A stretch of DNA of 64,000 bases, taken from positions 32,001-96,000 of IMG/VR virus record IMGVR_UViG_3300036770_008700; one strand, written 5' to 3'. A program made the translations under genes and the position numbers. A model generated the notes under the pieces. It was not told where the DNA came from and made no database searches. It saw only the letters and a list, made by a program, of their open reading frames with translations. Numbering within the stretch: the stretch's first letter is position 1; every line of letters starts with the position of its first letter. This DNA comes from a virus. Of the stretch, positions 3,045 through 29,146 are shown in pieces.

Positions 3045-3479
3045 CTACCCCAATCCTGGCGAATAAACGATAAAGTTTTCAAAACTAGCTGAACCTGTGT
3101 GATAAGGGTCACTTGCATTAAATGTGAATGACCCCGTAAGCGTTGGTATGCTTGCTGTTGGAATGCCTGTTAATCCAGCTAAAATCTGAAAATTAACTGA
3201 TCCGCTGCCACTTGGTTTCTTAAGATATATTTCTTTTACACGAACTTCAAATGTAGCATATCCATTGCTACCGATTGTAAAATGATTGGAATTACTGACT
3301 CCGAACGCTGTAAATCCAACATCTAAAGAACTAGTATTGGAATGAATCGTTATAAACTTGGTAACGTAGGGAAAGCTTATTTTAACTGGCGTTGTTGAAG
3401 CAGATGATGCTGTAACATATGGCAAACCAGATGCTAGGTAAGCTGGAACATCATTATAGCCGGGAGAGGGATATTGCAT
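3045..3479 (-). CDS. putative virion structural protein, paralog of 3483-3902
   Basis: Beta-rich, S/T/G-rich; shares SGLPY, FPYVTKFIT, TFEVRVKE and AGLTGIPTASIPTLTGS with neighbour. Confidence 0.7.
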   Translation of the reverse strand: MQYPSPGYNDVPAYLASGLPYVTASSASTTPVKISFPYVTKFITIHSNTSSLDVGFTAFGVSNSNHFTIGSNGYATFEVRVKEIYLKKPSGSGSVNFQILAGLTGIPTASIPTLTGSFTFNASDPYHTGSASFENFIVYSPGLG

Positions 3480-3482: not shown

Positions 3483-3902
3483 TCAACCGATACCTTCATA
3501 AGTTAAAACATTAGTGAATGAATTGCTGCCAGTAAAATAAGGATCAGACGAGCTAAATGGATATGAGCCTGTGAGTGTTGGAATGCTTGCTGTTGGAATA
3601 CCTGTTAATCCAGCAATGATATGAAAAGTATGAGCACCATCAATATACATTTCTTTTACTCGAACTTCAAATGTAACGGTATCATTGTTGGAAATACTGA
3701 AATAGTTTGTCCCTGCAACACCGTTTGCTGTGAATCCAATCTTTAAAGATCCACCGTCAGCTTTCACTGTAATAAACTTGGTCACGTAAGGAAACTGCAC
3801 ATGATATGCAGGTGCTGATGTTGCGGTGCCTGTGAGAGCATATGGTAGTCCAGAAATTTGATAAGCTGGAGTAAAGTTAAAGCCGGGCTGTGGCCATTGC
3901 AT
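3483..3902 (-). CDS. putative virion structural protein, paralog of 3045-3479
   Basis: Same conserved blocks as neighbour; AATAGTTAT motif upstream. Confidence 0.7.
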   Translation of the reverse strand: MQWPQPGFNFTPAYQISGLPYALTGTATSAPAYHVQFPYVTKFITVKADGGSLKIGFTANGVAGTNYFSISNNDTVTFEVRVKEMYIDGAHTFHIIAGLTGIPTASIPTLTGSYPFSSSDPYFTGSNSFTNVLTYEGIG

Positions 3903-3969
3903 GTTGCTTATACCTTTTTTGTTGGTTGAACATAACTATTCAATAAACCAGAAAAGGATTTACAATCTC

Positions 3970-4092
3970 ATGCATGACAAACTTACTCTAGAAAAATGTT
4001 GCTCTGTGTTCGGTGACTCAAAATGGGCACCCCTCGCTGGCTTCCTAGCGGTTACAGAAGGTCTGCAAACCCTACACCACAGTCATCACTAA
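3970..4092 (+). pseudogene. truncated 5' remnant of a Dps/ferritin-like gene
   Basis: EKCCSVFGDSKWAPLAGFLAVTEGLQTLHHSHH* aligns ungapped (18/33 identical) to the Dps N-terminus at 4736 and stops where the HNH gene ends. Confidence 0.85.
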
Positions 4093-4691
4093 CCTTCCCA
4101 TCTATTGTTCTTTTTCAAGTTATCAAACGCTGGAAGAGGTTGTAAATTTTCAAGAGCCCAGCACGCTTTAAACTCTGATGAATCTGTCGAATCGTAATTA
4201 AACCAAGAATCTGGTCTTATGTGGTCGATATGCCAATAAGTTCCATGATTTTCCCACGACATTTCTGGCGTAAATTGTTTTTCTAAATGTTCTTTTAACT
4301 GCTCTAAAGTGTAACCTACAAGATCAATCCAGCTTGTCCTATTTTTCGTTAAAAATCTAGTTTTAAGAGCATGGTTCATTCGTCTGCTCATGTTTTCTCT
4401 TAAACGAAACTGTGGATCAGTTGCTCTTCTTATTCTATTTTGTTCGTTCAGTTGTTCTTTTAATCTTTCACGACGTTCACGTTGCTTTTGAACGTAATGA
4501 TCTCTTCGTTTATGTCTGATTTCTTTCTTTTTCTCACGCAGTTTAACTTTGTTTTTTTGACAATATTCACGGCATGGCTCTTTTCTGCAAATTTTGCATA
4601 TGCTAAGATGGCCATCTTTTGATTTTTTATTTTTGTGATAATCAGTTAATGGTTTTTCAATCGAACACGAACTGCACTTTTTCAACGTCAT
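4089..4691 (-). CDS. free-standing HNH homing endonuclease-like protein
   Basis: N-terminal CSSC/CKIC Zn finger, charged helix, C-terminal WHIDHIRP...LENLQPL...NLKKNN. Confidence 0.85.
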   Translation of the reverse strand: MTLKKCSSCSIEKPLTDYHKNKKSKDGHLSICKICRKEPCREYCQKNKVKLREKKKEIRHKRRDHYVQKQRERRERLKEQLNEQNRIRRATDPQFRLRENMSRRMNHALKTRFLTKNRTSWIDLVGYTLEQLKEHLEKQFTPEMSWENHGTYWHIDHIRPDSWFNYDSTDSSEFKACWALENLQPLPAFDNLKKNNRWEG

Positions 4692-4735
4692 ATACCTATC
4701 TATAAGTATTCTAAAAATAACTTAAAGGGATTTAT

Positions 4736-5233
4736 ATGGACAGTATTGATAATGTTTGGGAATCTATGGTTGAGATCTTTGGTCCAAATGAATATGCACC
4801 ATTAGCTGCATTTTTAGCTGCTACAGAAGCTCTTCAAATGATAGCGCACAGTCACCATTGGCAAACCAAAGGTGAAAACTTCTATGGCGATCACCTTCTT
4901 TATCAACGTCTGTATGAAGCTATCCTGCCTGAGATAGATTTGATTGGTGAAAAACTGATTGGTGTCAGCCAAGATGTTTCTCTTACCAACTACTTCAAAC
5001 GTGTTAAAGCAATGGAAATGTTTCTTAAAGCTGTAACACACAGCGATCAACCATATATTGTTGTAAGCCATGATGCAGAACTAACATACGTTCGTATGGG
5101 TGGCGAACTAATGGACCAACTAGAACAAGCTGGTTTGCTCACAAGAGGCTTGGAACAAATGCTAGGCAACGTTCTTGACAAACATGAAGAACATATCTAC
5201 TTGCTTGACCAAAGAGTTAAAAGCAACAAATGA
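4736..5233 (+). CDS. dps: Dps / ferritin-like protein
   Basis: HSHHWQTKGENFYGDHLLYQRLYE...DLIGEK matches the Dps ferroxidase signature. Confidence 0.8.
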   Translation: MDSIDNVWESMVEIFGPNEYAPLAAFLAATEALQMIAHSHHWQTKGENFYGDHLLYQRLYEAILPEIDLIGEKLIGVSQDVSLTNYFKRVKAMEMFLKAVTHSDQPYIVVSHDAELTYVRMGGELMDQLEQAGLLTRGLEQMLGNVLDKHEEHIYLLDQRVKSNK

Positions 5234-5856
5234 AACTATATCCAATATTATTTGAGCAACAAGAAACAGAGCATCCTTTCTCTCCAGAGTTGTTTGATGC
5301 TTTAAAAGAGTTTGTTGACAAAAACAATATTGAAAAGCTTGAAGCATTGATGCCAGAAATTAAAGAGTTGGTTTCATCAAACAAGTATCCAAATATAACA
5401 GATCCAAGTGATGTTAAAGTATATCGTGGAATGAAAATCAGCTTTAAACGAGCAGAAGAGCTATGCAAAACTTATCAATGCATAGAAGAAGAAACAAGTA
5501 AAAACAACGTTGTTTATAAGACGTTTAAAGGTTCTGTTGTTGTTCCTACTAAACGTAACGTACAAAGTTGGTCTGGAAATGTTAACGTTGGCATTCAATT
5601 TGCTATGGACCCAGAAATTGGTGGTGAAGTTCCAATCGTGTTCTCGGCAATAGCTTCAAAAGACAAGTTTTTCGGTAAGCCGGGAGAAATTGCAAGAATT
5701 GTTTTGCCAAGACGAGCGAGTGAAATGGAAACAATATCTATTTCTCCAGTAGAATCAGATGGTTTTGTTTTGGCAATTCCACCAGATGATTTCTTTGGAA
5801 GGAATCCAAGTTTAACCGATCCATATACCCTCAAGAAATTGACTTTAAAGCTCTGA
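5230..5856 (+). CDS. putative ADP-ribosyltransferase (R-S-E clade, Alt/Mod-like)
   Basis: VYRGM, QSWS...FA and EMETI in the order expected for R-S-E ARTs; N-terminal MKLYPILFE. Confidence 0.6.
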   Translation: MKLYPILFEQQETEHPFSPELFDALKEFVDKNNIEKLEALMPEIKELVSSNKYPNITDPSDVKVYRGMKISFKRAEELCKTYQCIEEETSKNNVVYKTFKGSVVVPTKRNVQSWSGNVNVGIQFAMDPEIGGEVPIVFSAIASKDKFFGKPGEIARIVLPRRASEMETISISPVESDGFVLAIPPDDFFGRNPSLTDPYTLKKLTLKL

Positions 5857-5888
5857 AATTATTTTGACACAAAAGGAGTATAAAACCC

Positions 5889-6542
5889 ATGCTTTTGTCT
5901 GATATATGGAAACTTCAAGGTTCGGCAAAACAAGAACAAGCATTGTTAGAAGAGCTAACTAAAGCTCCACTGGTGTTTAAAGAAGTAACGTTGCAAGACG
6001 CAACCAACGTTTTAGTTCTTCAAGTTACAAATGATTACTTGTGCTTGGAAACCATAAGAGTTTCCTTGTTGCCAGCAACAGCTCAAAAAGTTGCCAACCA
6101 TTTCAATTGTATACTTCCAACCAAAAACCTTGTTGATAAGATTTGGAAAGCTTGTGACTTAAAGTTAAACCCAAAGTCTATGTCAACCAATCGTGGTTCT
6201 TATGACACACTCAAAGCACACAATGACTCAATAAATACTCAAGTAAACAACCGAGAGTTTGTTTTGATTGGTGGTCATAAGAAAGACATTGTAATCAATA
6301 GCAAAATGCCAAAAGGCAAAGTAATCATATATGGCTGGCATTACCCTAATGGTAAACCTATTCAACCAGAAACAACTGTTCATGGTGATTTCTACAAAGA
6401 CTATTCACATGGAACAAGACTTGTAAGTAAAACTGTAATGTTGAATGGTGAAGTTAAAAATATCTGGGATGTGATTAACAGTGCTGTTTGGGAAAAACTG
6501 GTTGGAGATAAACCCTTTTTAGAAACTGGATATAGAGTTTAA
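5889..6542 (+). CDS. hypothetical protein, possibly enzymatic
   Basis: 217-aa ORF with enzyme-like motifs GHKKDIV, IYGWH, PIQP and YKDYSHGTRLV; family not named with confidence. Confidence 0.65.
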   Translation: MLLSDIWKLQGSAKQEQALLEELTKAPLVFKEVTLQDATNVLVLQVTNDYLCLETIRVSLLPATAQKVANHFNCILPTKNLVDKIWKACDLKLNPKSMSTNRGSYDTLKAHNDSINTQVNNREFVLIGGHKKDIVINSKMPKGKVIIYGWHYPNGKPIQPETTVHGDFYKDYSHGTRLVSKTVMLNGEVKNIWDVINSAVWEKLVGDKPFLETGYRV

Positions 6543-6575
6543 ACTTTATCCTTTTGTTTTAAGAACAAATTTAGG

Positions 6576-6698
6576 TTATTTGGTGGTTCGCAATCCACCA
6601 ACACAAATGACCCACGAATCTGTGGCGTCTTTCATTTCTGTGTTGTGGATTTTAGTTGTGTTTGGTTTTCCAATTTTCAGTATATTGTTTTTACTCAA
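6576..6698 (-). pseudogene. displaced 3' remnant of the RuvC-like resolvase gene
   Basis: Hand translation KNNILKIGKPNTTKIHNTEMKDATDSWVICVGGLRTTK* aligns ungapped to resolvase C-terminus KKHVAKTGKSANQEVFNSEMKDACDAWVVVVGGKRLDGIK. Confidence 0.85.
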
Positions 6699-7716
6699 TA
6701 CTGTTTGTGGGCAAAGTTGTAGAAACATTTTCTTTCTCTTCCTGATCTAATAAAATCCAACCCTTATAAGCCTTTCTTTTACCTTTAATCAAATCATGCA
6801 TTGATGATTGAGACAAACCATGTTCTTTGCAGAATTGGTTTAGGTTTGAAATAGGTCCAAAAACTTTATTTGTTGGGGATTGAATTCTCACATCATATGT
6901 ATTGCTTATTTTTGAGATTCTGTCAGTTTTTATTGAATCTTTTGTGATATGCTTATTTTCCAAAAGTCTCCAACCTTGGCAAATTTTAGCATAGCCATTA
7001 ATCATTGATCTAAAGTTTTTATCATTGATTCCATGCTCTCTGCAAAATGCTCTAAGATTAGTGATAGGACCATACTCTTTATTATTCGGGCACACAACCC
7101 GCACATCGTATACTTTTTGTAATTTTTGAGCTAGTAAATCTTTTGCTGGAATGTATGGAATGTCTTTATTTATTGCTAATCTCCAACCTTTACAAGTTTT
7201 TACTTTACCCTTTCTTAACTGCAAAAGATGCGAATAAAATATGTTGTTTTCTATGCAAAATTTACGTAAGTTAACCACCGACACAAATTTACCATTTGGA
7301 TCAATCAAATCTACTGATAGTTTTTTCTTGGAATTCGACAACTTTTGTTTAGTTTGCTCTGAGAGTTTTAAACCCAAATTAGAATAAGCAGTTGGATTAA
7401 TATTGTAACATTCATTTTGATTGTCATAATATTGATCAAGCCAATATTGCTCTCTCTGAACGATGTTGTCAACAGTGCAATGTTCTAAAACACGCATCTC
7501 AAAACTATCAAAATACTTCAAGTATTCTTTTTGCAGGTAAGGGCTTGCTCGTCCTTTTCTTAAATTTGTATTATGCACCCCAAGTCTTTTGGTAATCGAC
7601 AAACAACTTCCTATGTAAATTTTATTGTTTCTGACATTGCGTATTTGGTATATGGCTGGTGTTTTTGGAGTGTATTCACCATTCAATATAATTGGCCCTA
7701 GTAATCTTCTTGTCAT
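6691..7716 (-). CDS. GIY-YIG homing endonuclease with repeated C-terminal DNA-binding modules
   Basis: AIYQI...KIYIGS...R...EQYWLD...YN; NUMOD3-like LSEQTKQKLS; three NLxxFCxExxI...KGW repeats. Confidence 0.9.
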   Translation of the reverse strand: MTRRLLGPIILNGEYTPKTPAIYQIRNVRNNKIYIGSCLSITKRLGVHNTNLRKGRASPYLQKEYLKYFDSFEMRVLEHCTVDNIVQREQYWLDQYYDNQNECYNINPTAYSNLGLKLSEQTKQKLSNSKKKLSVDLIDPNGKFVSVVNLRKFCIENNIFYSHLLQLRKGKVKTCKGWRLAINKDIPYIPAKDLLAQKLQKVYDVRVVCPNNKEYGPITNLRAFCREHGINDKNFRSMINGYAKICQGWRLLENKHITKDSIKTDRISKISNTYDVRIQSPTNKVFGPISNLNQFCKEHGLSQSSMHDLIKGKRKAYKGWILLDQEEKENVSTTLPTNSIE

Positions 7717-7738
7717 GCGAGATAAGTAGTTATACCAT

Positions 7739-8299
7739 TTATTTTATCCCGTCAAGTCTCTTTCCTCCAACGACAACCACCCATGCATCACAAGCATCTT
7801 TCATTTCCGAGTTAAAAACTTCTTGATTGGCACTTTTACCTGTTTTTGCCACATGTTTTTTCCAAGGAAATTCTGGATGTAGTGCTGTGATAAAATCAAA
7901 CACTTTCTCTTTAACGGGACGTTTATCGGCTTTGTTATTCTTAAACCCTACAGCTTTTCTAGCAGAAGTTACGTTAACATCAACAACTTCTGCATTAAAA
8001 GCTTTATGGGAAAGATAGGAAATGATTCCATTAAATTTTGATAAGACTGCAAGTGTATCTGCGCTGCTAAAACCCTTACTAAACATCTTAGCATTAGCTT
8101 CAACATAGATACGTTCTACTTTTTTATCACCAACTAGTTTCTTTATCTCTTCAATACCTCTATCTGCTTTGTCCCACATAGTATGTAGTGTGCTGGAAGT
8201 CAATTTTACAGCATCAAATACAACAACTTGTTCATTTTCATCAACCAAACAAACTCCAGTGCAACTCGTGCTGATATCAAGTCCTAAGAAATATTTCAT
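7739..8299 (-). CDS. RuvC-like Holliday junction resolvase
   Basis: LGLDISTSCTG, IYVE, RKAVG and DACDA catalytic pattern; likely start MKYF at 8299 after aagga. Confidence 0.8.
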   Translation of the reverse strand: MKYFLGLDISTSCTGVCLVDENEQVVVFDAVKLTSSTLHTMWDKADRGIEEIKKLVGDKKVERIYVEANAKMFSKGFSSADTLAVLSKFNGIISYLSHKAFNAEVVDVNVTSARKAVGFKNNKADKRPVKEKVFDFITALHPEFPWKKHVAKTGKSANQEVFNSEMKDACDAWVVVVGGKRLDGIK

Positions 8300-8325
8300 A
8301 TTGATTCCTTTAACATCCCAAACAA

Positions 8326-8841
8326 TCATTCGTCATAAACCTCGCAACCATAAAGACGCCTAATCTTGTCAACTGATTGCTTTGGAATCTTGCACGTATA
8401 ACTTACTTGATAGCAATCTTTGTTTGAAGCAGCTAAAACTACATGGTCTTTCCATGTTGGCTTCATGTTAAGAAACTCAACACCTAGTTGCTGTTGAAAC
8501 AACTCAACAACAGCATTTACCCAGCCCCAGCCGGTTTTAAATGCCATTTGCTTGCCTCGTGGAATATTAATGTTTAGTCGTTGTGTTTTGTAACCAGCAA
8601 TGGTTTCATTCGACCATACAGCTTCATTCAAAGCAATCCAATCATTATTCGAGGTACGTGAGTATGCAGCCGCAAAATCCTTGAGACGACGACCTACTTG
8701 AACATAACATTGTTCTGGCAAAGCATCTACTAATGCTTTTCTTTGCTCGGTCATTGCTTGCTCAAGTGTTGAGTAAAAGTTAACTGTAGTGATTGCTTTG
8801 TCTTTATTGCCAACAAGCATGTAATACGATTTTTGAATCAT
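8326..8841 (-). CDS. hypothetical protein
   Basis: 171-aa ORF with aaggag SD. Confidence 0.7.
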   Translation of the reverse strand: MIQKSYYMLVGNKDKAITTVNFYSTLEQAMTEQRKALVDALPEQCYVQVGRRLKDFAAAYSRTSNNDWIALNEAVWSNETIAGYKTQRLNINIPRGKQMAFKTGWGWVNAVVELFQQQLGVEFLNMKPTWKDHVVLAASNKDCYQVSYTCKIPKQSVDKIRRLYGCEVYDE

Positions 8842-8882
8842 AATGGTGACTCCTTACGCTAAGTTATCACACACGTTTTTCT

Positions 8883-9185
8883 TTATAAACCAATATCAAA
8901 ACATTCATTATCACACCAATCATCAGGAACAAAAATCCATCCAAGCTGTCCATTGTTTGAAAGAACTTTTAAACAATTTCTATCTCGCTCAATCAAACAG
9001 AATATACTCTTTGGTTCAAGATAAGAAACGTTGCAGTTTAAATGAAATGAATAATATTTGGCTGCATCGCTGGTGTCTCGAAGACTACATCGTCGAATAG
9101 CAATGCTGCTGTGTAGGATACTATCTTTTGAAGGATACAACAACCAAAAGTATTCCTTGATTTGATAAAGCTTTCCAACATTCAT
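8883..9185 (-). CDS. tandem 'GKLY' paralog 4 (most divergent)
   Basis: MNVGKLYQ..YFWLLYPSKD-[variable]-YYS..CNVSY..PKSIFC..G.LGWI. Confidence 0.8.
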   Translation of the reverse strand: MNVGKLYQIKEYFWLLYPSKDSILHSSIAIRRCSLRDTSDAAKYYSFHLNCNVSYLEPKSIFCLIERDRNCLKVLSNNGQLGWIFVPDDWCDNECFDIGL

Positions 9186-9475
9186 TGGTTTACTTCCTCA
9201 ATATAGTTCTTGTCCTTGTAAAAATCAGAAAGATAAATCCAACCAAGCTCACCATTAGTTGAAAGGATTTTACAGAACTTACCATCTTGCTCCAAAAAAC
9301 AGAAAATGCTTTTTGGAGAAATATATGAAACGTTGCAGTTATATTCCTTGCTATAATAAGCGGCGGCGGAGGCGGTGGTGTCGAGGGAGGCGAAGAGGAA
9401 GGCGTCAGCAATATCCTTTGAAGGATAAAGTAACCAAAAATACTTCTTGACTTGATAAAGCTTTCCGATGTTCAT
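9182..9475 (-). CDS. tandem 'GKLY' paralog 3
   Basis: Same scaffold; ATGA overlaps with both neighbours. Confidence 0.85.
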   Translation of the reverse strand: MNIGKLYQVKKYFWLLYPSKDIADAFLFASLDTTASAAAYYSKEYNCNVSYISPKSIFCFLEQDGKFCKILSTNGELGWIYLSDFYKDKNYIEEVNQ

Positions 9476-9768
9476 TGATTTACTTCCTCAATATCGGCTT
9501 TGCACCAATCAGCAAGATTAATCCAACCAAGTTCTCCATTAGTTGAAAGAATCTTGCAACAATACCCATCTTGTTCCAAGAGCATAAAAATGCTGTTTGG
9601 AAAAATATATGAAACGTTGCAGTTGAAACGCTTGCTATAATAATCAGCGCCCTCTACGGCTTCGGTGAAGGAGGCTCCAGCAACAGCGGGGTAGGTGGCG
9701 ACTTCATCCTTTGAAGGAAAAAGAAACCAAAAGTATTTCTTGGCTTGATAAAGCTTTCCAACATTCAT
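9472..9768 (-). CDS. tandem 'GKLY' paralog 2
   Basis: Same scaffold; ATGA overlaps. Confidence 0.85.
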   Translation of the reverse strand: MNVGKLYQAKKYFWFLFPSKDEVATYPAVAGASFTEAVEGADYYSKRFNCNVSYIFPNSIFMLLEQDGYCCKILSTNGELGWINLADWCKADIEEVNQ

Positions 9769-10061
9769 TGATTTACTTCCTCAATGCAACCCTTTGCCCA
9801 ATCTTTATTTTTTGGATAAATGATCCAACCAAGTTCTCCGTTGGTTGAAAGAATCTTGCAAAATCGTCCATCTTGTTCCAAAAAACAGAAAATGCTTTTT
9901 GGAGAAATGTATGAAATATTGCATTTGAAATACGTGCTCCAATAATCAGCAACAGCGGCGGTGGCGGCGGCGGCCAGATCGTCTTCGGCGGCAGCAATCT
10001 CCTTTGAAGGAAAAAGGAGCCAAAAATACTCCTTGACTTGATAAAGCTTTCCAACATTCAT
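9765..10061 (-). CDS. tandem 'GKLY' paralog 1
   Basis: Start MNVGK at 10061 by homology; upstream TGgTATACT is a likely promoter rather than coding sequence. Confidence 0.85.
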   Translation of the reverse strand: MNVGKLYQVKEYFWLLFPSKEIAAAEDDLAAAATAAVADYWSTYFKCNISYISPKSIFCFLEQDGRFCKILSTNGELGWIIYPKNKDWAKGCIEEVNQ

Positions 10062-10098
10062 GAATCCAGTATACCACATGGAAAAATGAATATAACGG

Positions 10099-10530
10099 TT
10101 ATTTTTTCGCTTCTAAAAGCTTTGTAAATCCTTCAATAACAGCGTCACTCCAAAATTGATACTCATAATCCTCTAACTTATTCTCTTTTAACCACTTCCT
10201 CGTTGCCGTAGCCTTGGCAATAACTTTTCTGTCAGTCAACTTGTCGGCACGCTTGACTTCCACAATAACCTTTTTACCGGTTTTATACAGAACCAAGAAG
10301 TCAGGAGTATAGTTTCTATACCTGCCAGCTATTGCATACCGGATAATAATGCTCTCATATTCGTAAGAAAGCACATCTGGATTCTGATCTAGATAGAGTG
10401 CAACCGTGTATTCCCAACCTGATCTATATTTTATTGGTGTTGGACATTTAGGAGAATAATGTGTCCCAGTTATGTAATGCTTTTTACGCTTGCGTCGCTT
10501 TTTTACAGTTTTCTTTTTATCAGTTTCCAC
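10099..10530 (-). CDS. TnsA-N / T4 gp4-like head completion nuclease (PD-(D/E)XK)
   Basis: YRSGWE, YEYE.IIIRY, YTPDFLV and VEVK motifs. Confidence 0.75.
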   Translation of the reverse strand: METDKKKTVKKRRKRKKHYITGTHYSPKCPTPIKYRSGWEYTVALYLDQNPDVLSYEYESIIIRYAIAGRYRNYTPDFLVLYKTGKKVIVEVKRADKLTDRKVIAKATATRKWLKENKLEDYEYQFWSDAVIEGFTKLLEAKK

Positions 10531-11918
10531 AATACCTTTTCCATTACCAATGCTTGAGTCATTTCTTGTAACCCAGATAAACGCTGAAAAGCAGAACGAC
10601 GAACAAAGTTGTCTGAATCTTTTGCCAGTTTCTCTAAAATATCCCGAGGAACTTTGGGATTGTCTGCAACAGCTTCCCGTGTTAAAGGGTCTGTAGAATC
10701 ATCAGCAAGATACCTTAAAACTTCCTGTGGTGTGTTTCGATTTCCTGCAACCGCTATTCGAACCACCGGTTGCTTCGCTAACTCAGCTAAAACATCGCCT
10801 GGAGTGTCTTCATTTCGTGCAACAGCAGATCGTACAGTCTCTGCTGGGTCTTTTGAAAAAGTTGTTAAAACCTCTGGTGTAACGTTTAAATGGTTAACCG
10901 CCAGAATACGAATAGTTGTATTCTCAAGGTCGTCTAACTTTGCTAGACTTGCCAAAACTTTTGGCGTTGCTGAGTTGTTGTTTACAACAGCCATTCGAAC
11001 ATTAAAATCTCTATCGTTAGCAAGAGCCACTAATAAATCTTCTGGAGATTTCTTATTCTTTGCCAGAAGCACACGAACACTATCTGTGTCAAATAAAAGC
11101 GACTTCAAAACTTCTGGTGGAGCGTTTTCATTCCCTGCAACAACTTTTCTAATCTTCCAATCAGAATCCTGTGCAAGACTCGCTAACAACTTCGGTGAAG
11201 AAGTTTTTGCAAGCGTAATCTTCCTTTGATAATCTCTTTCCTCTGTGTCAAATAATTGATCAACATCTTTTATGTTGCTACTTTTAAGTTCAATCACTTT
11301 TACTAAATCAAGCTTGCTTGTATCAAAAAATACTGCTTGACAAGGCTCTGAATCATGAATAATAGAAAGGCAATCGTCGTTAACTCCATCATAGCCAAGC
11401 TTCTTGAAAAGAATTGACCATTTACCTGTTGCGCCGCCACCTCTTGCCACTGAATCATCATCAGTTTTTTTGTCAGAACCACTCAAAAGTCTTGTAACAT
11501 TCCAGATTTTTCCAGCAGGAGTTTTTCTTTTAGCTTTTGAAGCTGCTTTCTCAATCACTTCTAACGAGTTGCCCATGTCAACAAGCTTGGCAATGTCTGC
11601 TTTGTAGTCACTCTCACTATACTTCTTAATCTCTAGAATATTAGCTTCTGGTTTAGGCTTAAAGATAATAGCATAAGGTCTATCAATCGCAAAACTTTCC
11701 ATCTTATCTCTATCTAAAGGATATGCGTAAAATCCAATAGGAGTGTTGTACTTGTTAACAATGTATAACCCTATTCTTGGAACATTAGAAAAGTGAATGA
11801 AATATCCACCTTGTTCCTCGTATTTAACAAGCTCTTCTTGCCAACGAGGAAAATTTTCTCCTATCTCTTCTTTGTATCTGGTTATTTCGGATAAACGAAT
11901 GGTTTTTCTCTTGGTCAT
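10503..11918 (-). CDS. ART-like N-terminal domain fused to LRV/HEAT-like repeats
   Basis: FIHFS..PIGFYAY, LGYDGV and IIHDSEPCQAVFF, then ~24-aa repeats LAxDxxxxVRxAVAxNxxTPxxVL. Confidence 0.65.
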   Translation of the reverse strand: MTKRKTIRLSEITRYKEEIGENFPRWQEELVKYEEQGGYFIHFSNVPRIGLYIVNKYNTPIGFYAYPLDRDKMESFAIDRPYAIIFKPKPEANILEIKKYSESDYKADIAKLVDMGNSLEVIEKAASKAKRKTPAGKIWNVTRLLSGSDKKTDDDSVARGGGATGKWSILFKKLGYDGVNDDCLSIIHDSEPCQAVFFDTSKLDLVKVIELKSSNIKDVDQLFDTEERDYQRKITLAKTSSPKLLASLAQDSDWKIRKVVAGNENAPPEVLKSLLFDTDSVRVLLAKNKKSPEDLLVALANDRDFNVRMAVVNNNSATPKVLASLAKLDDLENTTIRILAVNHLNVTPEVLTTFSKDPAETVRSAVARNEDTPGDVLAELAKQPVVRIAVAGNRNTPQEVLRYLADDSTDPLTREAVADNPKVPRDILEKLAKDSDNFVRRSAFQRLSGLQEMTQALVMEKVLWKLIKRKL

Positions 11919-11995: not shown

Positions 11996-12016
11996 GTATG
12001 GGTGATGATAAGTAGT
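11996..12016. repeat. 21-bp direct repeat, copy 1 (gtatgggtgatgataagtagt)
   Basis: 19/21 identical to 13017-13037; the two copies flank the endonuclease gene. Confidence 0.85.
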
Positions 12017-12999
12017 TACAGTATATTCATCTCTTCTAACGTTTGTTTTGTTAGCAGTTTATAAGCATCGATCCCATTTGCTCGACAATACTCTTCGGCT
12101 GCTAACTGCTTTTGCTTAACTTTTTCAGATTCTGAATAAGCTGCTGGCTTGATTTCCCAAAGTTCTTTCCGTCCATCGGTATATTCAATCAGAAAATCTG
12201 GAATATATCGTCGAGCATGTTCTCTGTTTCCTTCGTTTAGTTTGTAGCAGATCACGAACGGTTCATATGTAAACGTTCTAACTGTCAGTTCTTTATCCAA
12301 CCATTCAACTACTGCTTTTTCCCAAGATGACCGATAAAAGACTTCGTTGCCCAATTTTTCAGAAAAAACGTGTCCATTTTTGTGGAAGTTTTTCCCATAG
12401 GCTTGACGCTTTCCTGCAACCATTTCTGAAGAAACAATCTCTGACATTTTTTGTCTAGTCTCTAGTGAATGGTTTTTGCCGTACATCGGATTTCTCTCTC
12501 CACTGAAACAAGCTGTATCTTTATGATGTTTTGAGATTTTTTCTTTTGCTTCCTTTGTATGATGTTTACCAAACATAGGATGTTTCGTTTTGTCTTTCAG
12601 TCTCTCAGTCATAGAAGCACTAAGTTTTCCTTTTACTTCATCGTCCATTCGTGCATTATTAGGAATCAAACCTTCTCTAATCGCCGCACCACGACAAGGT
12701 TTGCTACAAAAATGATGTACGAACTTAGCGATCTGATTTTTCCATTGCAAAACCAACTTTTTGCAATAAAAACATTCAATTTCTGCTTTTCTGGGAGAGG
12801 GCTTATAACTTTTTTCCATAACTCTTCGATGTGCATATGCACATTCAAGTTTACAATAATGATTTTTGTTCTTTAGTTGCTTGTATTCCAGCTTTTTTGG
12901 AGTAAAAACAGTGTGGCAAAAATCACACTCGAAAACAACAATTCGTCGCTTTTGTTTTGGTTTACCAACAACGGCTTCCATCTTGTCTTCTATTATCAT
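12016..12999 (-). CDS. homing-endonuclease-like protein: Zn fingers, NUMOD3 repeats and TnsA/gp4-like PD-(D/E)XK nuclease
   Basis: CDFC..YCxxxC, CFYC..FCSKPC; HPMFGKHHTKEAKEKIS, NPMYGKNHSLETRQKMS; YRSSWE, YIPDF, EIKP. Confidence 0.8.
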   Translation of the reverse strand: MIIEDKMEAVVGKPKQKRRIVVFECDFCHTVFTPKKLEYKQLKNKNHYCKLECAYAHRRVMEKSYKPSPRKAEIECFYCKKLVLQWKNQIAKFVHHFCSKPCRGAAIREGLIPNNARMDDEVKGKLSASMTERLKDKTKHPMFGKHHTKEAKEKISKHHKDTACFSGERNPMYGKNHSLETRQKMSEIVSSEMVAGKRQAYGKNFHKNGHVFSEKLGNEVFYRSSWEKAVVEWLDKELTVRTFTYEPFVICYKLNEGNREHARRYIPDFLIEYTDGRKELWEIKPAAYSESEKVKQKQLAAEEYCRANGIDAYKLLTKQTLEEMNIL

Positions 13000-13046: not shown

Positions 13047-15467
13047 TCAAAAGTCTATTTTTATCGTGAACTTAAGCTTATCGCCACTGCGCTTCAAAAC
13101 CGGTTGAGCCATTTTTGTTTTTGCCACTATGTTCAAGTTTTCATCGTGAAGATATAAGTCAGTGATATACACATAACGCTTATCAAAATCACTAGCAAAA
13201 TCTGTTGCTTCCAAGTCACGATTCCAGCTTGGGTTACTAGAACTCACAAGCTCTAAAGGATTAGCATAAAGGTCAGCTTTCATAACATGAATGTTGCGCT
13301 CACCTTGAAACGTGCATTCGAATCCGTTTTCACCAAACCAATAAAGACTTGGATTTTTGATTAACACAAGGCCATTGTCATAAAAGATGTTGCCAACAGA
13401 GTTATATTGAGCTTGTGATCCAGAGCAATCTGCTCTGTAAAGACTTCCAAAGCCATCATCCTTTAGTGTTATACCAACTTTACCATAACTGTTTGATACG
13501 TTGTTATCGGTTATTATAAACGTACCGGGAGCTATTTTGTTGCCATAAAACAAGTTGGATATATCGAATATGACAACTTGCAAGCTACCGTTTTCTTGTG
13601 TTCGCTGGAGGATGGTTGGTGTGCGTTGTGGATTAAGTGTTCCTAGTGAGCTTGTTACATCAAAACCAGACAACGCTGCAATAATGCTTTTTGGATTAAG
13701 GTCTGTGTTAAGAGTTGCACTACCGCTTACTGGTGGAACTAAATCGTATATAGAATCCAGAGAATACATGTTTTTTAACGTAACCAAGTTATAAGCTTCT
13801 TGGCCTTTGTCGGTAACAAAGGAGCTTGCGCTTAGGTTACTTAGCAGTTCATAATAGTTTGGTGTGAACTTACCATTATCGTTTGGCAGAACAGTTAAAC
13901 TGTTTCTGCGTACAGAGCCAGTGTTGTAAAGAAACTGGTTTGAGGTTAGTTGTTCTGTGTTACCAACAAGAGCACTGCCGGTTAAGTTGATTAGTCTTGG
14001 ATAATTTCCTGTTGCAAAGTCTCTTGTATAGTTTTCTAGATTGATATAATGTCCACCAGTATCAAAACTCATGTCAACATTAAATGGATGTTCTGTTGTT
14101 CCATTTACACATTGGAATGGGTGAACTAATACACCACCAAGTCCAGCAACCGTGTCAACGCTTCTATAAGGCGATTCTTTTGTGAACATTGGTGGAAGAT
14201 AGAACAATAGATTTGGATCGCCTAATGGGGCTCCTGATAGGCTTCTTGAGGCTATCTCATTTTGACCAAGATACTTGTTATAGATTTTCAGTTCATGCAC
14301 TTCTGCATTAAGAGGATGTGCTAACGTGTATGAAGTTGGTTCATCTTGTGTGGGACTTGTTATGAACGCTGAACCAGTGACAGGTATACCAAATCTTGTT
14401 TGTGCTCTATTGGAGAAAAAGTAGGCTGCTGGACCGTTTTCTGGGCATTCCAAAAAGTTTCCAACAGTTAAAATGCATGGATTTAAAACCAGCGTTTCTT
14501 CTTTGGGAGCAATGCTTGCAGAAGGAATATAGAATGTTCCTTGTTCAACTCCATCAATCATGAAAGAGCCGCTACCAAAGTTATAACTGTTTGTGCCCCA
14601 ACGAACGGTTACATGTTGCCAAGTGTTTCTTGACAAACAGTTGTCGTTCGAAACAAAGTTTAAACCTGTTGTGCTTGCTGGATTGATTGCGGACGGTAAT
14701 GTTTTTGCTGAACTACTAAGTTGCAACAATAACCTATAACCGTCTGTTAGACCATTTGAATCTCTACTTGAGCCAGAGATAAGAGATAACGCATATGCTC
14801 CAGAAAGATGAAAAATTGTTCCTGCTTTAAATTCACTTGTTTGTGAGTCTATTGTATACTTTGGATTTATCCAAAAATCGAAAGAGAATGCACCAGAAGG
14901 AATATAGCTTGAAGAAACAATGGTTCCAGCACCATTCAAAGAAGCAGTAGTGGGATATAGCAAAGCAGAGTTAGATGGAAGACCACTGGCTGTAAAGAAG
15001 TTTAATGAATTATAGTTGGTAAATGCGAAGTTATAGTTTGTACCGAACAAGCTATAGTAAGGCATGAGCACGTTGGTTGTAACAAACTTACGTGTCATGT
15101 TTAGGTCAAGGTTCACACCAGGAGTAAATCTTACAACTTCTTGTTTTTGTGTGTTTCTTGGGTTGGTTGGTTGGTTTTTAACAACCGACAAATATTCGCT
15201 TATTCTTTGGTTTAACTGCGCTGGTGTTTTTGATTGTTTAGCAAACGCAAGAACATCATCTATATCATTGATTTGTTGGAATGAGCCTGTTGGAGCACCA
15301 GATACAACCGACCAATTCACATAATAGTCTTTCATTGCATTTGAGCGGCGAGGATAAACGTATGCTGCTCCAGTTACACCTGTGCTACTTGACACAAAGG
15401 TTGTGCTTGGTACAGTTTGTATTGAGAAGAACTCAATATCACCGGGCTCGAAACGTTGGATAGACAT
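13047..15467 (-). CDS. virion/baseplate protein with LamG-like domain
   Basis: FSFDFWINP, WQHVTV, ELKIYNKYL; C-terminal ITDLYLHDENLNIVAKTK..PVLK similar to 16803-18041. Confidence 0.75.
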   Translation of the reverse strand: MSIQRFEPGDIEFFSIQTVPSTTFVSSSTGVTGAAYVYPRRSNAMKDYYVNWSVVSGAPTGSFQQINDIDDVLAFAKQSKTPAQLNQRISEYLSVVKNQPTNPRNTQKQEVVRFTPGVNLDLNMTRKFVTTNVLMPYYSLFGTNYNFAFTNYNSLNFFTASGLPSNSALLYPTTASLNGAGTIVSSSYIPSGAFSFDFWINPKYTIDSQTSEFKAGTIFHLSGAYALSLISGSSRDSNGLTDGYRLLLQLSSSAKTLPSAINPASTTGLNFVSNDNCLSRNTWQHVTVRWGTNSYNFGSGSFMIDGVEQGTFYIPSASIAPKEETLVLNPCILTVGNFLECPENGPAAYFFSNRAQTRFGIPVTGSAFITSPTQDEPTSYTLAHPLNAEVHELKIYNKYLGQNEIASRSLSGAPLGDPNLLFYLPPMFTKESPYRSVDTVAGLGGVLVHPFQCVNGTTEHPFNVDMSFDTGGHYINLENYTRDFATGNYPRLINLTGSALVGNTEQLTSNQFLYNTGSVRRNSLTVLPNDNGKFTPNYYELLSNLSASSFVTDKGQEAYNLVTLKNMYSLDSIYDLVPPVSGSATLNTDLNPKSIIAALSGFDVTSSLGTLNPQRTPTILQRTQENGSLQVVIFDISNLFYGNKIAPGTFIITDNNVSNSYGKVGITLKDDGFGSLYRADCSGSQAQYNSVGNIFYDNGLVLIKNPSLYWFGENGFECTFQGERNIHVMKADLYANPLELVSSSNPSWNRDLEATDFASDFDKRYVYITDLYLHDENLNIVAKTKMAQPVLKRSGDKLKFTIKIDF

Positions 15468-16802: not shown

Positions 16803-18041
16803 TTATTTCTTCGAGGAAATACGGATATTTTTCTTTGCAAAATAATCCAAACGTACCTTTACAGTGTATTCACGTTGATAGTTTTTCAAAATCGGGCGTG
16901 AGGTCTTTGCTACAGCCAATAGGTTGTTGTCAGCATCATACAAACCAATGCTAGTGATGAACGCAAAGCTACGTTGAATGTCTTCTTGACCAGCATCAAT
17001 CACAACAATACGCCCATCGCTGTCTGTATAAGTTGGATTGCTGGAATAGTTGAATCTATCTGCTGAAAACTTACAGAAGTAAACGCTGGAGTTGATGTTT
17101 GTTTGGTTTTGAAATGCCATAACTGTGGCATCTGAACCAGTGAAACGAGTAGAACAAACATAGTCAAGAATGTCATCAACAGAAGCTTGATAAAACAAAC
17201 TTCCTGTGCTTGTATACACAGAGCTTGAAAGAAGAGAACCTTCAAACGGTTGTGTGAGAGTTGTTACGCTTTCAATTGTTCCTGTAATGCTTTGTGTTAC
17301 GTTAAAGACACGAGATGCATCAACAATAACAATACCTTGATCATGCCAAATAAGACCAACTGCATTGGTTGTTGCTGTGTCTACAAGAGTACCAACAGAA
17401 CCTCCAGGGAATGAATAGTTTACATTTGTTGCAGAACCAAGGTCTGTGTAAATCTTTTCAGCCGTGCCAGAAGAAGAAAGATCGCTCACCGTTGCATTTG
17501 ATCCGCTATAAAACATTCTGAGAGCATATGTTTCACGCTTTAGTTGATCTCTGGAGAACAAACGTTTAAATGAGAAGAACAATGCTTCTTTAATTGATGT
17601 TCCAACAACAGATGTGCCATCGAAAGAACCTGAGATAAACGTAAACGCTTGTGTATCATTTCCGAGAAGTTGTTGAGCAAATGTACGATAGATATCAATC
17701 TTTTCACGCATCATCAATGAGTTGCTTGGAAAGTAATATTGATCGTTTACTGCATCATAGGATGTTGTTGTTTGAGTAACGAGAAGTGAACTTGTGTGAA
17801 GACCAACAGTAACATCGAATACGGGGTTAGCTGTTTGTAGTGAATAATCTTGGTCAAACACAGTTTGGAATAGAGAAGAAGTAACACCGGGACCGGTACC
17901 AGAGCCTGTTACCCAAACTTGATATTTTCTTCTTGTAACAGAAGAAGAAACGTCGTTGCCGATAACGTCAATAAGCTGCTCAAGCACATCGCTTTGAGTT
18001 CTTTTATCTGTTTGAGCATTGAAAAATTCAAATGTAGCCAT
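16803..18041 (-). CDS. baseplate/tail structural protein
   Basis: In the structural operon; C-terminal ITSIGLYDADNNLLAVAK..RPILK resembles tail-collar fibre domain. Confidence 0.75.
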   Translation of the reverse strand: MATFEFFNAQTDKRTQSDVLEQLIDVIGNDVSSSVTRRKYQVWVTGSGTGPGVTSSLFQTVFDQDYSLQTANPVFDVTVGLHTSSLLVTQTTTSYDAVNDQYYFPSNSLMMREKIDIYRTFAQQLLGNDTQAFTFISGSFDGTSVVGTSIKEALFFSFKRLFSRDQLKRETYALRMFYSGSNATVSDLSSSGTAEKIYTDLGSATNVNYSFPGGSVGTLVDTATTNAVGLIWHDQGIVIVDASRVFNVTQSITGTIESVTTLTQPFEGSLLSSSVYTSTGSLFYQASVDDILDYVCSTRFTGSDATVMAFQNQTNINSSVYFCKFSADRFNYSSNPTYTDSDGRIVVIDAGQEDIQRSFAFITSIGLYDADNNLLAVAKTSRPILKNYQREYTVKVRLDYFAKKNIRISSKK

Positions 18042-18061
18042 CTTGATATTATCCTTTTATT

Positions 18062-18772
18062 TCACTTTGAAATGGAAGCAACGAACTCTTTTACAGCGCC
18101 GCTGCTCATACCTGTTACTCTAACAACAGATCTAATGTTGTTTTTGTTGCTGGGTTGACCGAAAATAAGAAACTGAGCGTTTGTAATAGCTTTTGCTGAG
18201 ATTGCAATGCTAACGGAAGCTCCGCCTTGAGAGCTTGGAGCAGCATTCCTTGTAAGAACATACGTTGCCATGCGGTTGCGATCAATAACAGGTGTACTTC
18301 CAGCAATAAACAAGAATCGATCATCACACATAACCAAGAACTGATTGTCAACAAGTTCTTGTGGAAGAGTTTCACCGCCTGTAAGAGTTTGTTGAATGGT
18401 TACGCTTTGTTGCTGTGGTGATGTTGATGTTGTACTATTAACACCAAGAGTAAGTGTATCCCCAGTTAGTCCAGCAGTTGCAGACAAGGTAAGTAAAGGC
18501 AAGGTATAACGATTTGGATCAGGAAGAGAAACCAATGGATGTACCAAAGCTAGTTTGTTGTTTGTGATAGCTTCGAATACTGGTGTATTCTTTTCAATCT
18601 TTTCTTGACCTACAGTACGTCCGTATCTTACAATCATACCATAATCAACTTCATCGTCTCCAGCAGCAAACTTGATAACATTGAATGTACCTTGTGCCAG
18701 CTTTTGACGACCTAAATCTGTAAGAACGGCGTCTACTATAATGTTGTTTGTATCTTGTTGCAAAAAGCCCAT
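18062..18772 (-). CDS. baseplate/tail structural protein
   Basis: N-terminal DAVLTDLGRQKLA..KFAAGDDE; paralogous start to 26834-27910. Confidence 0.75.
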   Translation of the reverse strand: MGFLQQDTNNIIVDAVLTDLGRQKLAQGTFNVIKFAAGDDEVDYGMIVRYGRTVGQEKIEKNTPVFEAITNNKLALVHPLVSLPDPNRYTLPLLTLSATAGLTGDTLTLGVNSTTSTSPQQQSVTIQQTLTGGETLPQELVDNQFLVMCDDRFLFIAGSTPVIDRNRMATYVLTRNAAPSSQGGASVSIAISAKAITNAQFLIFGQPSNKNNIRSVVRVTGMSSGAVKEFVASISK

Positions 18773-18807
18773 TGTTTAGTTCCTTTTCGTATACTACTAG
18801 TTATGGT

Positions 18808-20619
18808 TCAAGCTGGATTTCTATCATCCATAATGGTTATATCTACAAACTGATCGGTTTGTAGATCTGTGTTAATCAATTGAATCCTGTATTTGTTTTC
18901 TGGTCCAAAGTTCACAATCTTTACATTGTCTCCATTACGCTGTGTTAACTCGTAGTATTCTGGATTAAACACAACAGTCATTTGGGAATAACCTTCGTTT
19001 TTTATTGTGTCAACAAAAGCATCTTTGTTCAAATATAGGTTTGGATAAGGCTTTGGTGCATTTGGTGCCGATGCATCAATACGTTCAATCGTGTTTCGTT
19101 GCTTGTTAAAGTTTATACCGATTTGATTGCTGTAGTTGCTGGTTATGCCATGAGCATCAACACATGCAACAGCGTAAATGTAATAACTTTCTCTGTCAAA
19201 ATCATCATCAATATAACAGGTTGGAGAAAAAACGTCTAGGTTAGTGATTGTTGTTTGGTTAATTACAACATTGTTATCGATGTTTCCTTCACCTTGTATA
19301 AACTGAAACAAACCAGTTGTGCCGGGAGGAGGAGCTACGAAAAACGTTTCAAAACCATTTTGCAAGTCATTAAAATCGTACATTCTAACAAGTTCAAAAG
19401 GACGTTGTGCTGGTCTTACGTCTCCAATATTCTTTCTTCTAAACACTTGAAAATACTTAATGTGTCTTCTTGTATCAATAGGAAAGTTCCAAGTAAGAAC
19501 AGGCTTCTTTAATCCATAATCCCAACGAATAAAAAAATCTGTTGGAGGTTCTGGAGGTGTTAAGTCTTCACACATCACCATTGTTCTTGTTGACTTGCTG
19601 CCAACCAAAAACGTTGAGATAACATTTACACGATTTTCAGGGTCAAATGTTAGTGTTTGGAGCGCAGTAATCACTCTGATAAAGTAAACATAACGTTGGT
19701 TGTAAAGTACCTGTGTGTCAAAGAACTCGGTTGTGTTTGGATCTTCAACGTAAAACGTTGTTTTCTCTACCAGCTCACCTCTTGCAAGTTGACGGTATCT
19801 ATCAATCACATACCCAGTTGTTTGAAACACTAAACCAAAGTCAACTTGTAAATCACTAATTGTTACAGATATCGGATTATCCAGCGATATATCGTATTGC
19901 GAGCCATTAAATCTATTTGCGTACTCTTTAACTGTATTTTGTGTAGAAAACAGTTTTGAAACACCATCTACCATTGACGGTGTGATTGCTAACAATGAAT
20001 CGTTTGTAAGCTTTTCATGAAACAAAGTACCAAACGCTTTATTTGCTACAGGAACAACAGTTGCTATGTTTTCTAGTGAGTTTGCTGGGTCAACTTCTGT
20101 TGTATCAGTGTTTGTTGTGTATGCATAGTTCAAATATTTGTTAAGGTATTCTTGAGTTACTCCTTCTGGAGTTATTTCATGCAAGGCTCTAACAGCGTCT
20201 GTAAGCCCAGCATTAACACGATTATAGTTTATTTGTCCGTACAACCGACTTAAATACTTTTGACGTTCGGTAACAAAACTGTTTTCTTGTTGTTTGAATG
20301 TGTCAAAGTAAGCAAGAGATAAATCGTCTTCGTCTAATATCTTGTTTGCATTAGCTTCAATTGAAATATCAATAAACTCTTGCTTTACAACTGTGTTTGA
20401 TCCAACGTTTACTTTATTCCATGAAAGCCGCACGTATCTTGGTACATTTCTGGAGAAGTCAACTGTGTTTGGCCGAGCGTTAGTTGCAATAGAAGGATTT
20501 ATTAGCTCGTCTGGACGATAAAAGTTGTAGTTGAACGTTGCATCAAACGTTTGAATCTCTGGAATGTCTGCGATTGTGATTGGCAGAGAAGGTAAGGATT
20601 CTCCTATTGTTACAGCCAT
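18808..20619 (-). CDS. structural protein with FN3/Ig-like segments
   Basis: PPEPPTDF..LTWNF..FQVFR..YYIYAVACVDAHG..SNYS resembles FN3. Confidence 0.7.
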   Translation of the reverse strand: MAVTIGESLPSLPITIADIPEIQTFDATFNYNFYRPDELINPSIATNARPNTVDFSRNVPRYVRLSWNKVNVGSNTVVKQEFIDISIEANANKILDEDDLSLAYFDTFKQQENSFVTERQKYLSRLYGQINYNRVNAGLTDAVRALHEITPEGVTQEYLNKYLNYAYTTNTDTTEVDPANSLENIATVVPVANKAFGTLFHEKLTNDSLLAITPSMVDGVSKLFSTQNTVKEYANRFNGSQYDISLDNPISVTISDLQVDFGLVFQTTGYVIDRYRQLARGELVEKTTFYVEDPNTTEFFDTQVLYNQRYVYFIRVITALQTLTFDPENRVNVISTFLVGSKSTRTMVMCEDLTPPEPPTDFFIRWDYGLKKPVLTWNFPIDTRRHIKYFQVFRRKNIGDVRPAQRPFELVRMYDFNDLQNGFETFFVAPPPGTTGLFQFIQGEGNIDNNVVINQTTITNLDVFSPTCYIDDDFDRESYYIYAVACVDAHGITSNYSNQIGINFNKQRNTIERIDASAPNAPKPYPNLYLNKDAFVDTIKNEGYSQMTVVFNPEYYELTQRNGDNVKIVNFGPENKYRIQLINTDLQTDQFVDITIMDDRNPA

Positions 20620-24368: not shown

Positions 24369-24369
24369 G

Positions 24370-29138: not shown

Positions 29139-29146
29139 GATAGTAA

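Follow-up and report, generated by a model that had tools for sequence, protein, structure and literature searches.

A 64,000-nucleotide (nt) stretch of viral DNA, positions 32,001–96,000 of IMG/VR record IMGVR_UViG_3300036770_008700 (hereafter the ‘window’, in whose positions coordinates are given), carries on its minus strand a gene for a RuvC-like Holliday junction resolvase (ruvC), followed by a gene for a free-standing GIY-YIG homing endonuclease and, beyond the latter, by an orphaned second copy of the ruvC 3′ end. This arrangement makes it very probable that a GIY-YIG cassette homed into the 3′ third of the phage gene, bringing with it a functional foreign gene end, the nuclease and a decayed ruvC relic. 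The argument is built on a foreign tract bounded on both sides, on a resident 71-nt orphan end just beyond it, on alleles with and without the cassette that coexist, and on nuclease genes found at the same spot in relatives. The parent record, 122,895 bp long and of an estimated completeness of 33%, is that of an uncultured tailed phage from water metagenomes, and a baseplate wedge protein (phrog_6) is present in it.

The resolvase gene (7739..8329, −; 196 residues according to the list of open reading frames (ORFs), with an alternative start at 8299) is a complete ORF whose stop codon lies 22 nt ahead of the start codon of the nuclease gene. Its codons 1–131 (7936..8329, −) are resident, as judged from identity with the database relative P0002, from the cassette-free locus L022 and from cassette-free contigs of other samples; codons 132–196 and the stop (7739..7935, −), which continue in frame and include D178 and D181, represent a foreign replacement end that diverges from both P0002 and L022. 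The nuclease gene (6691..7716, −; 341 residues; PF01541, phrog_2081 and phrog_314) is followed by ruvC-like sequence consisting of two parts. The first, psi-left (6647..6750, −), is a decayed, frameshifted and non-resident relic of ruvC codons ∼139–172, recognized by alignment with L022 and by shuffle controls; the second, psi-right (6576..6646, −), comprises the last base of codon 172, codons 173–194 and the stop, and matches L022 at 71/71 nt as the displaced resident 3′ end. Since identity with L022 ends at codon 131 and resumes at psi-right, the inserted tract extends from 6647 to 7935 (−; ∼1289 nt) and comprises the foreign ruvC end, a 22-nt spacer, the nuclease gene and psi-left, as is also reflected in the joints and differences seen in independent contigs. 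A convergent gene for a 217-residue protein (5889..6542, +; 99% amino acid identity to L022) forms the resident right flank.

An earlier note on this DNA had drawn attention to a minus-strand fragment resembling the resolvase C-terminus directly past the GIY-YIG stop codon. The fragment lies in a 50-codon frame of the ORF list (6576..6728, −), which shares 38 nt with the 3′ end of the nuclease gene; the ruvC-like similarity begins one base past the nuclease stop codon. Its alignment with the resolvase is colinear and free of gaps, as had been described (BLASTP: 17/35 identical and 24/35 positive over residues 157–191, E-value 4e-11; aligned stretch 6576–6692, −), the D178/D181 pair, i.e., the DxxD motif, lies within the aligned block, and a tblastn search of the 122,895-bp record with its own resolvase matches the same place (E-value 1e-6). 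This similarity is not due to chance, because the last 71 nt are identical at 71/71 positions to the true ruvC 3′ end of the nuclease-free locus L022, as compared with only 41/71 to the window’s own working copy. In L022, the 3′ part of ruvC is directly followed by the convergent 217-residue gene with no nuclease in between, and from the start of psi-right downstream the window is identical to this locus at 1634 of 1642 nt without a single gap (99.5%). The earlier note had reasoned that the presence of the fragment in relatives devoid of the endonuclease would speak against a displacement; L022 does not contain it as a separate fragment, the same sequence being there the real end of ruvC. At the protein level, the 22 residues encoded by psi-right recur unchanged in four of 120 listed relatives (P0002, P0003, P0005 and P0007) and at 20/22 positions in P0006.

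The match to L022 collapses abruptly at 6646/6647, and over psi-left identity drops to 58 of 106 aligned columns, 8 of which contain gaps. Psi-left is nevertheless clearly ruvC-derived: its alignment score of 2 compares with −19.5 ± 5.1 in shuffled sequences and −23.9 ± 5.9 in random segments of the genome (5000 each), and was reached by 0/5000 in either control. One might envisage a one-step illegitimate insertion in which only the new ruvC end arrived, and in which the whole 38–56-codon remnant is the recipient’s own DNA decayed in place; the same layout of new end, nuclease gene and old end would then be expected, and the remnant is colinear with ruvC. However, decay in place would hit both parts alike, whereas the identity changes abruptly at 6646/6647 (from 71/71 to 58/106 with insertions and deletions) and the flank beyond is nearly unaltered, which makes such an insertion decidedly improbable. 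Being separated from psi-right by a step too sharp for in-place decay, psi-left cannot be the recipient’s DNA. We infer that only the last 22 codons of the orphan are resident, and that the ∼34 codons before them represent an old, frameshifted relic introduced together with the cassette. The view that the element had brought a new ruvC 3′ end and displaced the old one is thus supported by L022, but it holds only for the last 22 of the 38 residues quoted in the earlier note; the first 16, together with ∼18 further frameshifted codons under the tail of the nuclease gene, would instead belong to the older relic that arrived with the element. Nuclease homologues P0122, P0123 and P0124 stop at or near the …LLNQ position (∼residue 325, corresponding to about 6742), and the last 16 codons of the window’s nuclease gene run beyond this end into the decayed relic.

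The working ruvC copy itself exhibits a break. The 120 relatives listed from a large protein collection were all aligned, and the five closest (P0002, P0003, P0005, P0006 and P0007, each 194 residues long) are identical to the window’s resolvase at 145–152 of 156 positions over residues 1–156, but share only 55–66% identity over residues 157–194. The window’s own C-terminus is nearest, among the 120 listed, to more distant relatives, namely P0026 (84%), P0009 (82%), and P0008, P0011, P0019, P0025 and P0027 (79%). P0002 differs from the window at 0 of residues 1–131 and at 17 of the next 63. P0002–P0007 (87–93% relatives) were compared as proteins, and the DNA comparison is based on L022, the partial ruvC of which served as the empty-site reference and which is one of 36 loci, none above 82% identity, retrieved in a metagenome scan with the ruvC alignment. 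Relative to L022, the working gene is identical at 75/75 nt over codons 107–131, at 97/123 over codons 132–172 and at 40/66 over codons 173–194, that is, at 137/189 nt overall after codon 132. A maximum chi-square analysis located the strongest contrast past residues 164–166, with 0/5000 permutations in five of six comparisons and 1/5000 in the sixth. Likelihood trees built from 56 of the top 57 relatives (P0044, a 169-residue partial sequence, was dropped) group the N-terminal part of the window’s resolvase with P0002–P0007 (support 88), and place the C-terminal part, for which the 63 available columns are too few, nearest P0027 and P0025. The earlier note had made its reading depend on a break in ruvC near the junction, and a break is what the comparison with P0002 and the permutation analysis reveal.

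These findings also bear on the possibility that the ruvC end was duplicated locally in tandem in this genome, that the copies then diverged, and that the nuclease gene became inserted between them fortuitously. Two colinear copies in the same orientation would be the natural outcome; however, it is the downstream copy that is identical to the relatives’ single copy, and the upstream working copy that is divergent and resembles other lineages. The same structure recurs, moreover, with other nucleases at the gene dps and in locus L010 (see below), so that a duplication of this kind is highly improbable.

Within the group P0002–P0007, whose members are 93–97% identical over residues 1–156, three C-terminal types are encountered (…KNQGQEVY…LRTTK, …SQKGKEIY…LRTTK and …KSVGQEVY…YRLHK), which suggests that the ruvC 3′ end may be a recurrent exchange point.

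At least part of the region occurs in 20 public runs from 12 studies, two of these runs being possibly the source sample, and contigs of four non-source runs (X3, X4, X18 and X19) were aligned to positions 5800–8900. Run X3 yielded a single 1759-nt contig (record 13) that spans 6568–8326, covers both junctions and differs from the window at 14 positions. Run X4 contains a cassette-bearing contig (record 22; 6597–7927, 3 differences) at a depth of 13.6 along with a cassette-free contig at a depth of 39.8, which departs from the window sequence at 6646. In X18, a cassette-free contig joins 6646 to 7832 via 16 other nt that read as L022-type codons, and low-depth fragments of the nuclease gene are likewise present; X19 provides flank coverage only and is uninformative on the site. 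Alleles with and without the cassette are thus found together in two samples, X4 and X18. In a comparison of the window with the cassette-free contigs of X4 and X18, differences start at 7935, and there are none between 7936 and 8011. The earlier note had suggested comparing ruvC alleles with and without the nuclease gene; the cassette-free ones, now represented by L022, X4 and X18, depart from the window from 7935 on.

Because the window was assembled from metagenome data, and samples contain the two alleles side by side, one may ask whether cassette-bearing and cassette-free strains were joined at a shared word, thereby creating an artificial duplicate. Contigs from other studies nonetheless span the junctions (6568–8326 in X3, 6597–7927 in X4), and psi-left, itself derived from ruvC, is part of the cassette-bearing path; an assembly chimera is scarcely credible.

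In X3, the cassette is combined with another ruvC 5′ background, which differs from the window at 8012–8050, and the cassette-bearing contigs of X3 and X4 both differ from the window at 6627, a difference seen on those contigs only; together, these features hint at separate recombination events. As a side observation, ruvC codons ∼93–106 (8012–8051) exhibit dense substitutions among strains, including a 1-nt deletion that is offset by a 1-nt insertion at a distance of 10 nt, and the protein is accordingly of either an AVLS or an FTLA type; this small mosaic is unrelated to the nuclease junction.

The site downstream of ruvC was inspected in 16 loci encoding resolvases that are 65–82% identical (L011/L012 and L014/L015 being near-duplicates). 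The gene following ruvC varies among them (dps, a member of the ‘MKLY…’ family, the 217-residue gene and others), and 14 of the 16 have neither a nuclease gene nor a second ruvC end at this position. In locus L009, a GIY-YIG gene whose product is 59% identical over 179 residues starts 18 nt past a ruvC that has the same …VVVVGGKRL-type end. The longest contig listed is 161,006 bp both for P0122, a nuclease 62% identical to that of the window, and for P0019, a RuvC with a …VVVVGGKRL-type end. In locus L010, a 136-residue ORF (6741–7151 of that locus, +) directly follows a complete ruvC. Its first ∼80 residues (a truncated Zn-ribbon/coiled-coil) resemble the N-terminus of the HNH-like nuclease encoded elsewhere in the window (E-value 9e-6), and its last 52 residues constitute a second, intact-looking ruvC end that starts at codon 144 and is fused in frame. 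The ORF has the appearance of a degenerating nuclease gene from a different family located at the corresponding site. The two ruvC ends of L010 score alike as the resident one, the nearest relatives being only 89–91% identical in the N-terminal part. Relatives of the window’s nuclease were also sought in IMG/VR; a scan with the single protein detected one locus (28% identity) and a scan with an alignment nine loci (24–42%), none of them close.

The same data address the inverse scenario, in which the cassette is ancestral in the clade, and in which the alleles of L022 and P0002–P0007 arose by deletion between the two ruvC-end repeats, that is, by loss and not by invasion. Direct repeats around the nuclease gene can recombine, degeneration does occur (cf. 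the truncated nuclease in L010), and the cassette-bearing allele is in the minority in X4. A deletion, however, would have left behind the working copy’s codons 132–172, whereas the cassette-free alleles differ there at 26/123 nt. In addition, the 14 related loci without a nuclease after ruvC have various neighbours, and the end of the working copy groups with more distant relatives. We thus regard a loss as improbable, and invasion by the cassette remains the preferred interpretation.

A mirror image of the ruvC arrangement exists at dps. A gene for an HNH/EndoVII-like nuclease (4089–4691, −; phrog_1035, E-value 1.4e-24) lies, on the opposite strand, between a working dps-like gene (4736–5233, +), whose foreign N-terminus is unlike that of the relatives’ dps, and a 40-codon remnant of a dps 5′ end (about 3970–4092, +), which matches the N-termini of relatives (MHDKLTLE… type). 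Alignment with the DNA of relatives extends to about 4090 and is taken up again at about 4790, ∼70 nt of their dps being matched twice. The parallel between ruvC and dps that the earlier note had drawn is therefore corroborated, as is its proposal of a recurrent swapping of gene ends: two such events with different nuclease families lie within 4 kb, and the ruvC of L010 adds a third one.

Self-comparison of the whole record and a search of flank against flank, in which positive controls attained E-values of 7e-10 and 8e-11, detected gene-end duplicates at the GIY-YIG and HNH-like nuclease genes. No flanking gene-end duplicate was found at three other nuclease-like genes (219–602 and 12016–12999 of the window, and G000 15013–15453), for which the best E-values were 0.002–0.047. 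A comparison of flanking proteins across these nuclease-like genes, of the kind suggested in the earlier note, thus singles out ruvC and dps. The remaining repeats in the tblastn self-comparison belong to families of paralogues or to recurrent leader or intergenic sequences, none of them linked to nucleases. The Pfam families HNH, HNH_3 and Endonuclease_7 have no match in the record. The 327-residue product of the gene at 12016–12999 (−), in which a TnsA-like endonuclease domain is combined with two NUMOD3 motifs, may be a further mobile nuclease; the gene has a conserved paralogue two genes away (10099–10530, −), the 143-residue product of which is TnsA-like/endonuclease I-like.

As is typical of free-standing homing nucleases, the GIY-YIG gene is present or absent at a fixed site among near-identical genomes and adjoins a co-converted foreign tract. 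We envisage that, upon co-infection, the nuclease would cut a cassette-free ruvC within codons 132–172, that the left break end would pair with ruvC upstream of the cut and the right break end with the relic downstream of the nuclease gene, and that repair from the cassette-bearing genome would copy everything between these two arms. The recipient’s own ruvC end, located right of the break, would survive as the orphan psi-right. The replacement end brought by the cassette keeps the gene intact and, being spelled differently (61–79% nt identity to the target), would presumably be uncuttable. Over codons 132–172, both ruvC-like copies of the carrier are markedly divergent from their cassette-free counterpart, which appears to agree with the requirement for self-immunity. 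Psi-left, because it is located between the nuclease gene and the crossover point, would never be refreshed by recipients and would ride from genome to genome. With both homology arms inside ruvC, the cassette could spread despite the differing genes that follow ruvC.

It is tempting to go one step further and to view the stranded end as the built-in second homology arm of the cassette, which would then constitute a portable two-armed unit capable of invading a conserved gene whatever adjoins it. We put this forward tentatively, as an idea that is quite possible but short of probable. Such a unit would act like an intron without splicing, and would turn the ends of core phage genes into hot spots of mosaicism. 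Three events at two genes with two nuclease families in the clade, along with the three ruvC C-terminal types among P0002–P0007, lend support to this idea. On this view, swapping of gene ends might be common in environmental phages, though largely undescribed there.

Several points weigh against the homing scenario and the details proposed for it. An approximately unbiased (AU) test on the 63 C-terminal columns did not reject a grouping with P0002–P0007 (p = 0.43 with 7 rows, 0.58 with 6 rows), and because this test was non-significant, the case for a break in ruvC is founded on the distribution of differences and on the identity of the orphan to relatives, and not on tree topology. A donor of the foreign ruvC end was not found, the best C-terminal match being 84% over 38 residues, or 81% over the 63 tree columns. 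The same holds for psi-left, which scores −12 to +3 when compared with 14 ruvC copies from 13 loci and the window’s working copy (L018 was skipped as the motif was not found there, and the near-duplicates L012 and L015 were left out). That psi-left would travel with the cassette is deduced solely from its non-resident nature, and L009, the sole other locus with a related nuclease beside ruvC, ends inside the nuclease gene and thus hides any relic. The evidence from the runs consists of assembled contigs and not of raw reads, and the fact that, in X4, the cassette-bearing allele has the lower depth is compatible with invasion and loss alike. Likewise, the placement of P0019 and P0122 on one contig is suggested only by the equal figures of 161,006 bp. 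Finally, the nuclease may be inactive today, cleavage and homing having been deduced from the arrangement of the DNA.

The free-standing homing endonucleases SegF, SegG and MobE of T4-like phages spread by ‘intronless homing’, in the course of which flanking markers are co-converted. The present cassette resembles them in that a GIY-YIG gene is located between genes of a large phage, is polymorphic for presence and absence, and is accompanied by a short foreign tract in the adjacent conserved gene. T4-type elements, however, sit between two conserved genes, both of which are used as homology arms, and are not known to duplicate a gene end; here, by contrast, ruvC provides the two arms and its end is present twice. 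A second comparison is with split or fractured genes, the two expressed pieces of which reassemble as protein. In contrast, ruvC stays one complete ORF by virtue of its replacement end, and the leftover is a dead remnant. What is shared with mobE, which splits nrdA in Aeromonas phage Aeh1 (cited in PMC8351571), and with ‘fractured genes’ that harbour split inteins (PMC2677866) is that a nuclease gene is lodged in the coding sequence of an essential or conserved phage gene whose function is kept.

The mechanism as such is not new to biology, since it matches that of the mobile ORFs (mORFs) of fungal mitochondria as set out in PMC3630166. There, mORF ‘gene hybrids’, which were initially reported from Allomyces atp6 and subsequently from Glomus, include atp6 of Allomyces macrogynus, atp6, atp9, cox2 and nad3 of Glomus sp., atp9 of Rhizopus oryzae and cox2 of Mortierella verticillata (PMC3630166). 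Both systems comprise a gene core, an in-frame foreign C-terminus, an endonuclease ORF (LAGLIDADG or GIY-YIG in the mORFs) and a stranded native C-terminus; in both, the native end best matches close relatives (71/71 nt in the phage; 91–98%, and identical in Allomyces, for mORFs) and the inserted end is divergent (61–79% nt identity in the phage, 64–81% for mORFs) (PMC3630166). The host, however, is here a bacteriophage and not an organelle, so that the cassette works like an mORF hybrid without being a member of the mitochondrial group. Moreover, the stranded end in the phage is bipartite, a decayed stretch foreign to the recipient being followed by a perfectly resident one; the accessible part of PMC3630166 describes no such split for mORFs. 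A further difference is that, in the phage, carrier and element-free alleles occur side by side within single environmental samples. A report of a nuclease-carried duplicated gene end in phages was not found in the limited open-access literature consulted, which included accessible parts of PMC10448857 and PMC8351571.

The locus thus links phage ‘intronless homing’ with the mobile-ORF gene hybrids of fungal mitochondria, and illustrates at base level, backed by population data, how the coding region of a conserved phage gene can be occupied by a selfish nuclease with no intron, intein or gene split being involved, namely through the import of a substitute for the gene end. For annotation, it is relevant that gene prediction and phylogenetic analysis are misled by such orphan ends and hybrid genes, and for the evolution of phages, that gene ends become exchange points between lineages. 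In addition, the alleles define an interval of ∼120 nt (codons 132–172) as the candidate recognition-site region of a GIY-YIG enzyme with three modules.

The assignment of the nuclease is based on its GIY-YIG domain (PF01541, residues 21–98; E-value 6.4e-10, 39.6 bits versus a cut-off of 22.6 in Pfam) and on matches in PHROG to phrog_2081 (three stretches) and phrog_314 (‘homing endonuclease’). The 341-residue protein consists of the catalytic domain followed by three repeated modules of ∼50 residues each, and it is the only GIY-YIG match in a scan of the whole 122.9-kb record. A search of positions 3500–8600 with Rfam returned no match at E ≤ 1 and no group I or group II intron model; together with the complete ruvC ORF, this indicates that the nuclease gene is not embedded in an intron or intein. 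P0121, a database variant of the window’s nuclease, is identical up to residue 313 and then continues with nine unrelated residues, and the X18 contigs have loose ends within the nuclease gene at 6927, 6960 and 7595; based on these endings, variant or rearranged copies of the nuclease exist.

The resolvase matches phrog_159 (‘RuvC-like Holliday junction resolvase’, E-value 8.4e-13), whereas neither it nor the orphan matches a Pfam family (E ≤ 0.01 for the resolvase), and a sequence profile search of the PDB with the resolvase gave nothing better than an E-value of 0.035. Its AlphaFold model (predicted local distance difference test score of 83.6), when submitted to Foldseek, retrieves bacterial RuvC at ranks 1–7 (E-values about 6e-6; template modelling scores 0.55–0.69), followed by Ydc2, RuvC of phage bIL67 and a poxvirus resolvase; the predicted structure has the RNase H-like fold of RuvC. 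Residues D18, E77, D178 and D181 are invariant in 30 relatives and are assumed to be the equivalents of the RuvC catalytic tetrad.

A blastn search with positions 5800–9000 against 50,697 phage records returned no match. Promoter-like sites number 9 versus 8.7 expected and terminator-like sites 3 versus 1.0 ± 1.1, and RNA spanning the ruvC-to-nuclease junction is predicted to fold no better than shuffled sequences (z = 0.19).

Several further features of the record lie apart from the cassette. An ORF for a RecA/UvsX-like protein of 241 residues outside the window (G000 108817–109543, −, equivalent to L006 318–1043) ends abruptly after the core ATPase region, and may be truncated, split or interrupted. 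An intergenic element of ∼100 nt is repeated three times outside the window (G000 17967–18092, 18776–18955 and 21264–21359), and a shared leader with an ‘MKLSKILFE’-type N-terminus is found upstream of several genes. Paralogue pairs comprise two tandem genes for proteins of 139 and 144 residues that are 55% identical (3045–3479 and 3483–3902, both −), and a gene for a 471-residue protein (10503–11918, −), a 52% identical copy of which is located about 35 kb away (G000 7425–8762, +). A tandem array of four small paralogous genes (8883–10079, −), located immediately upstream of the ruvC operon, encodes proteins of 97–104 residues that start with MN(V/I)GKLYQ…, and further copies of this type are present in the record at G000 24182–24517, 29103–29692 and 100632–101212.

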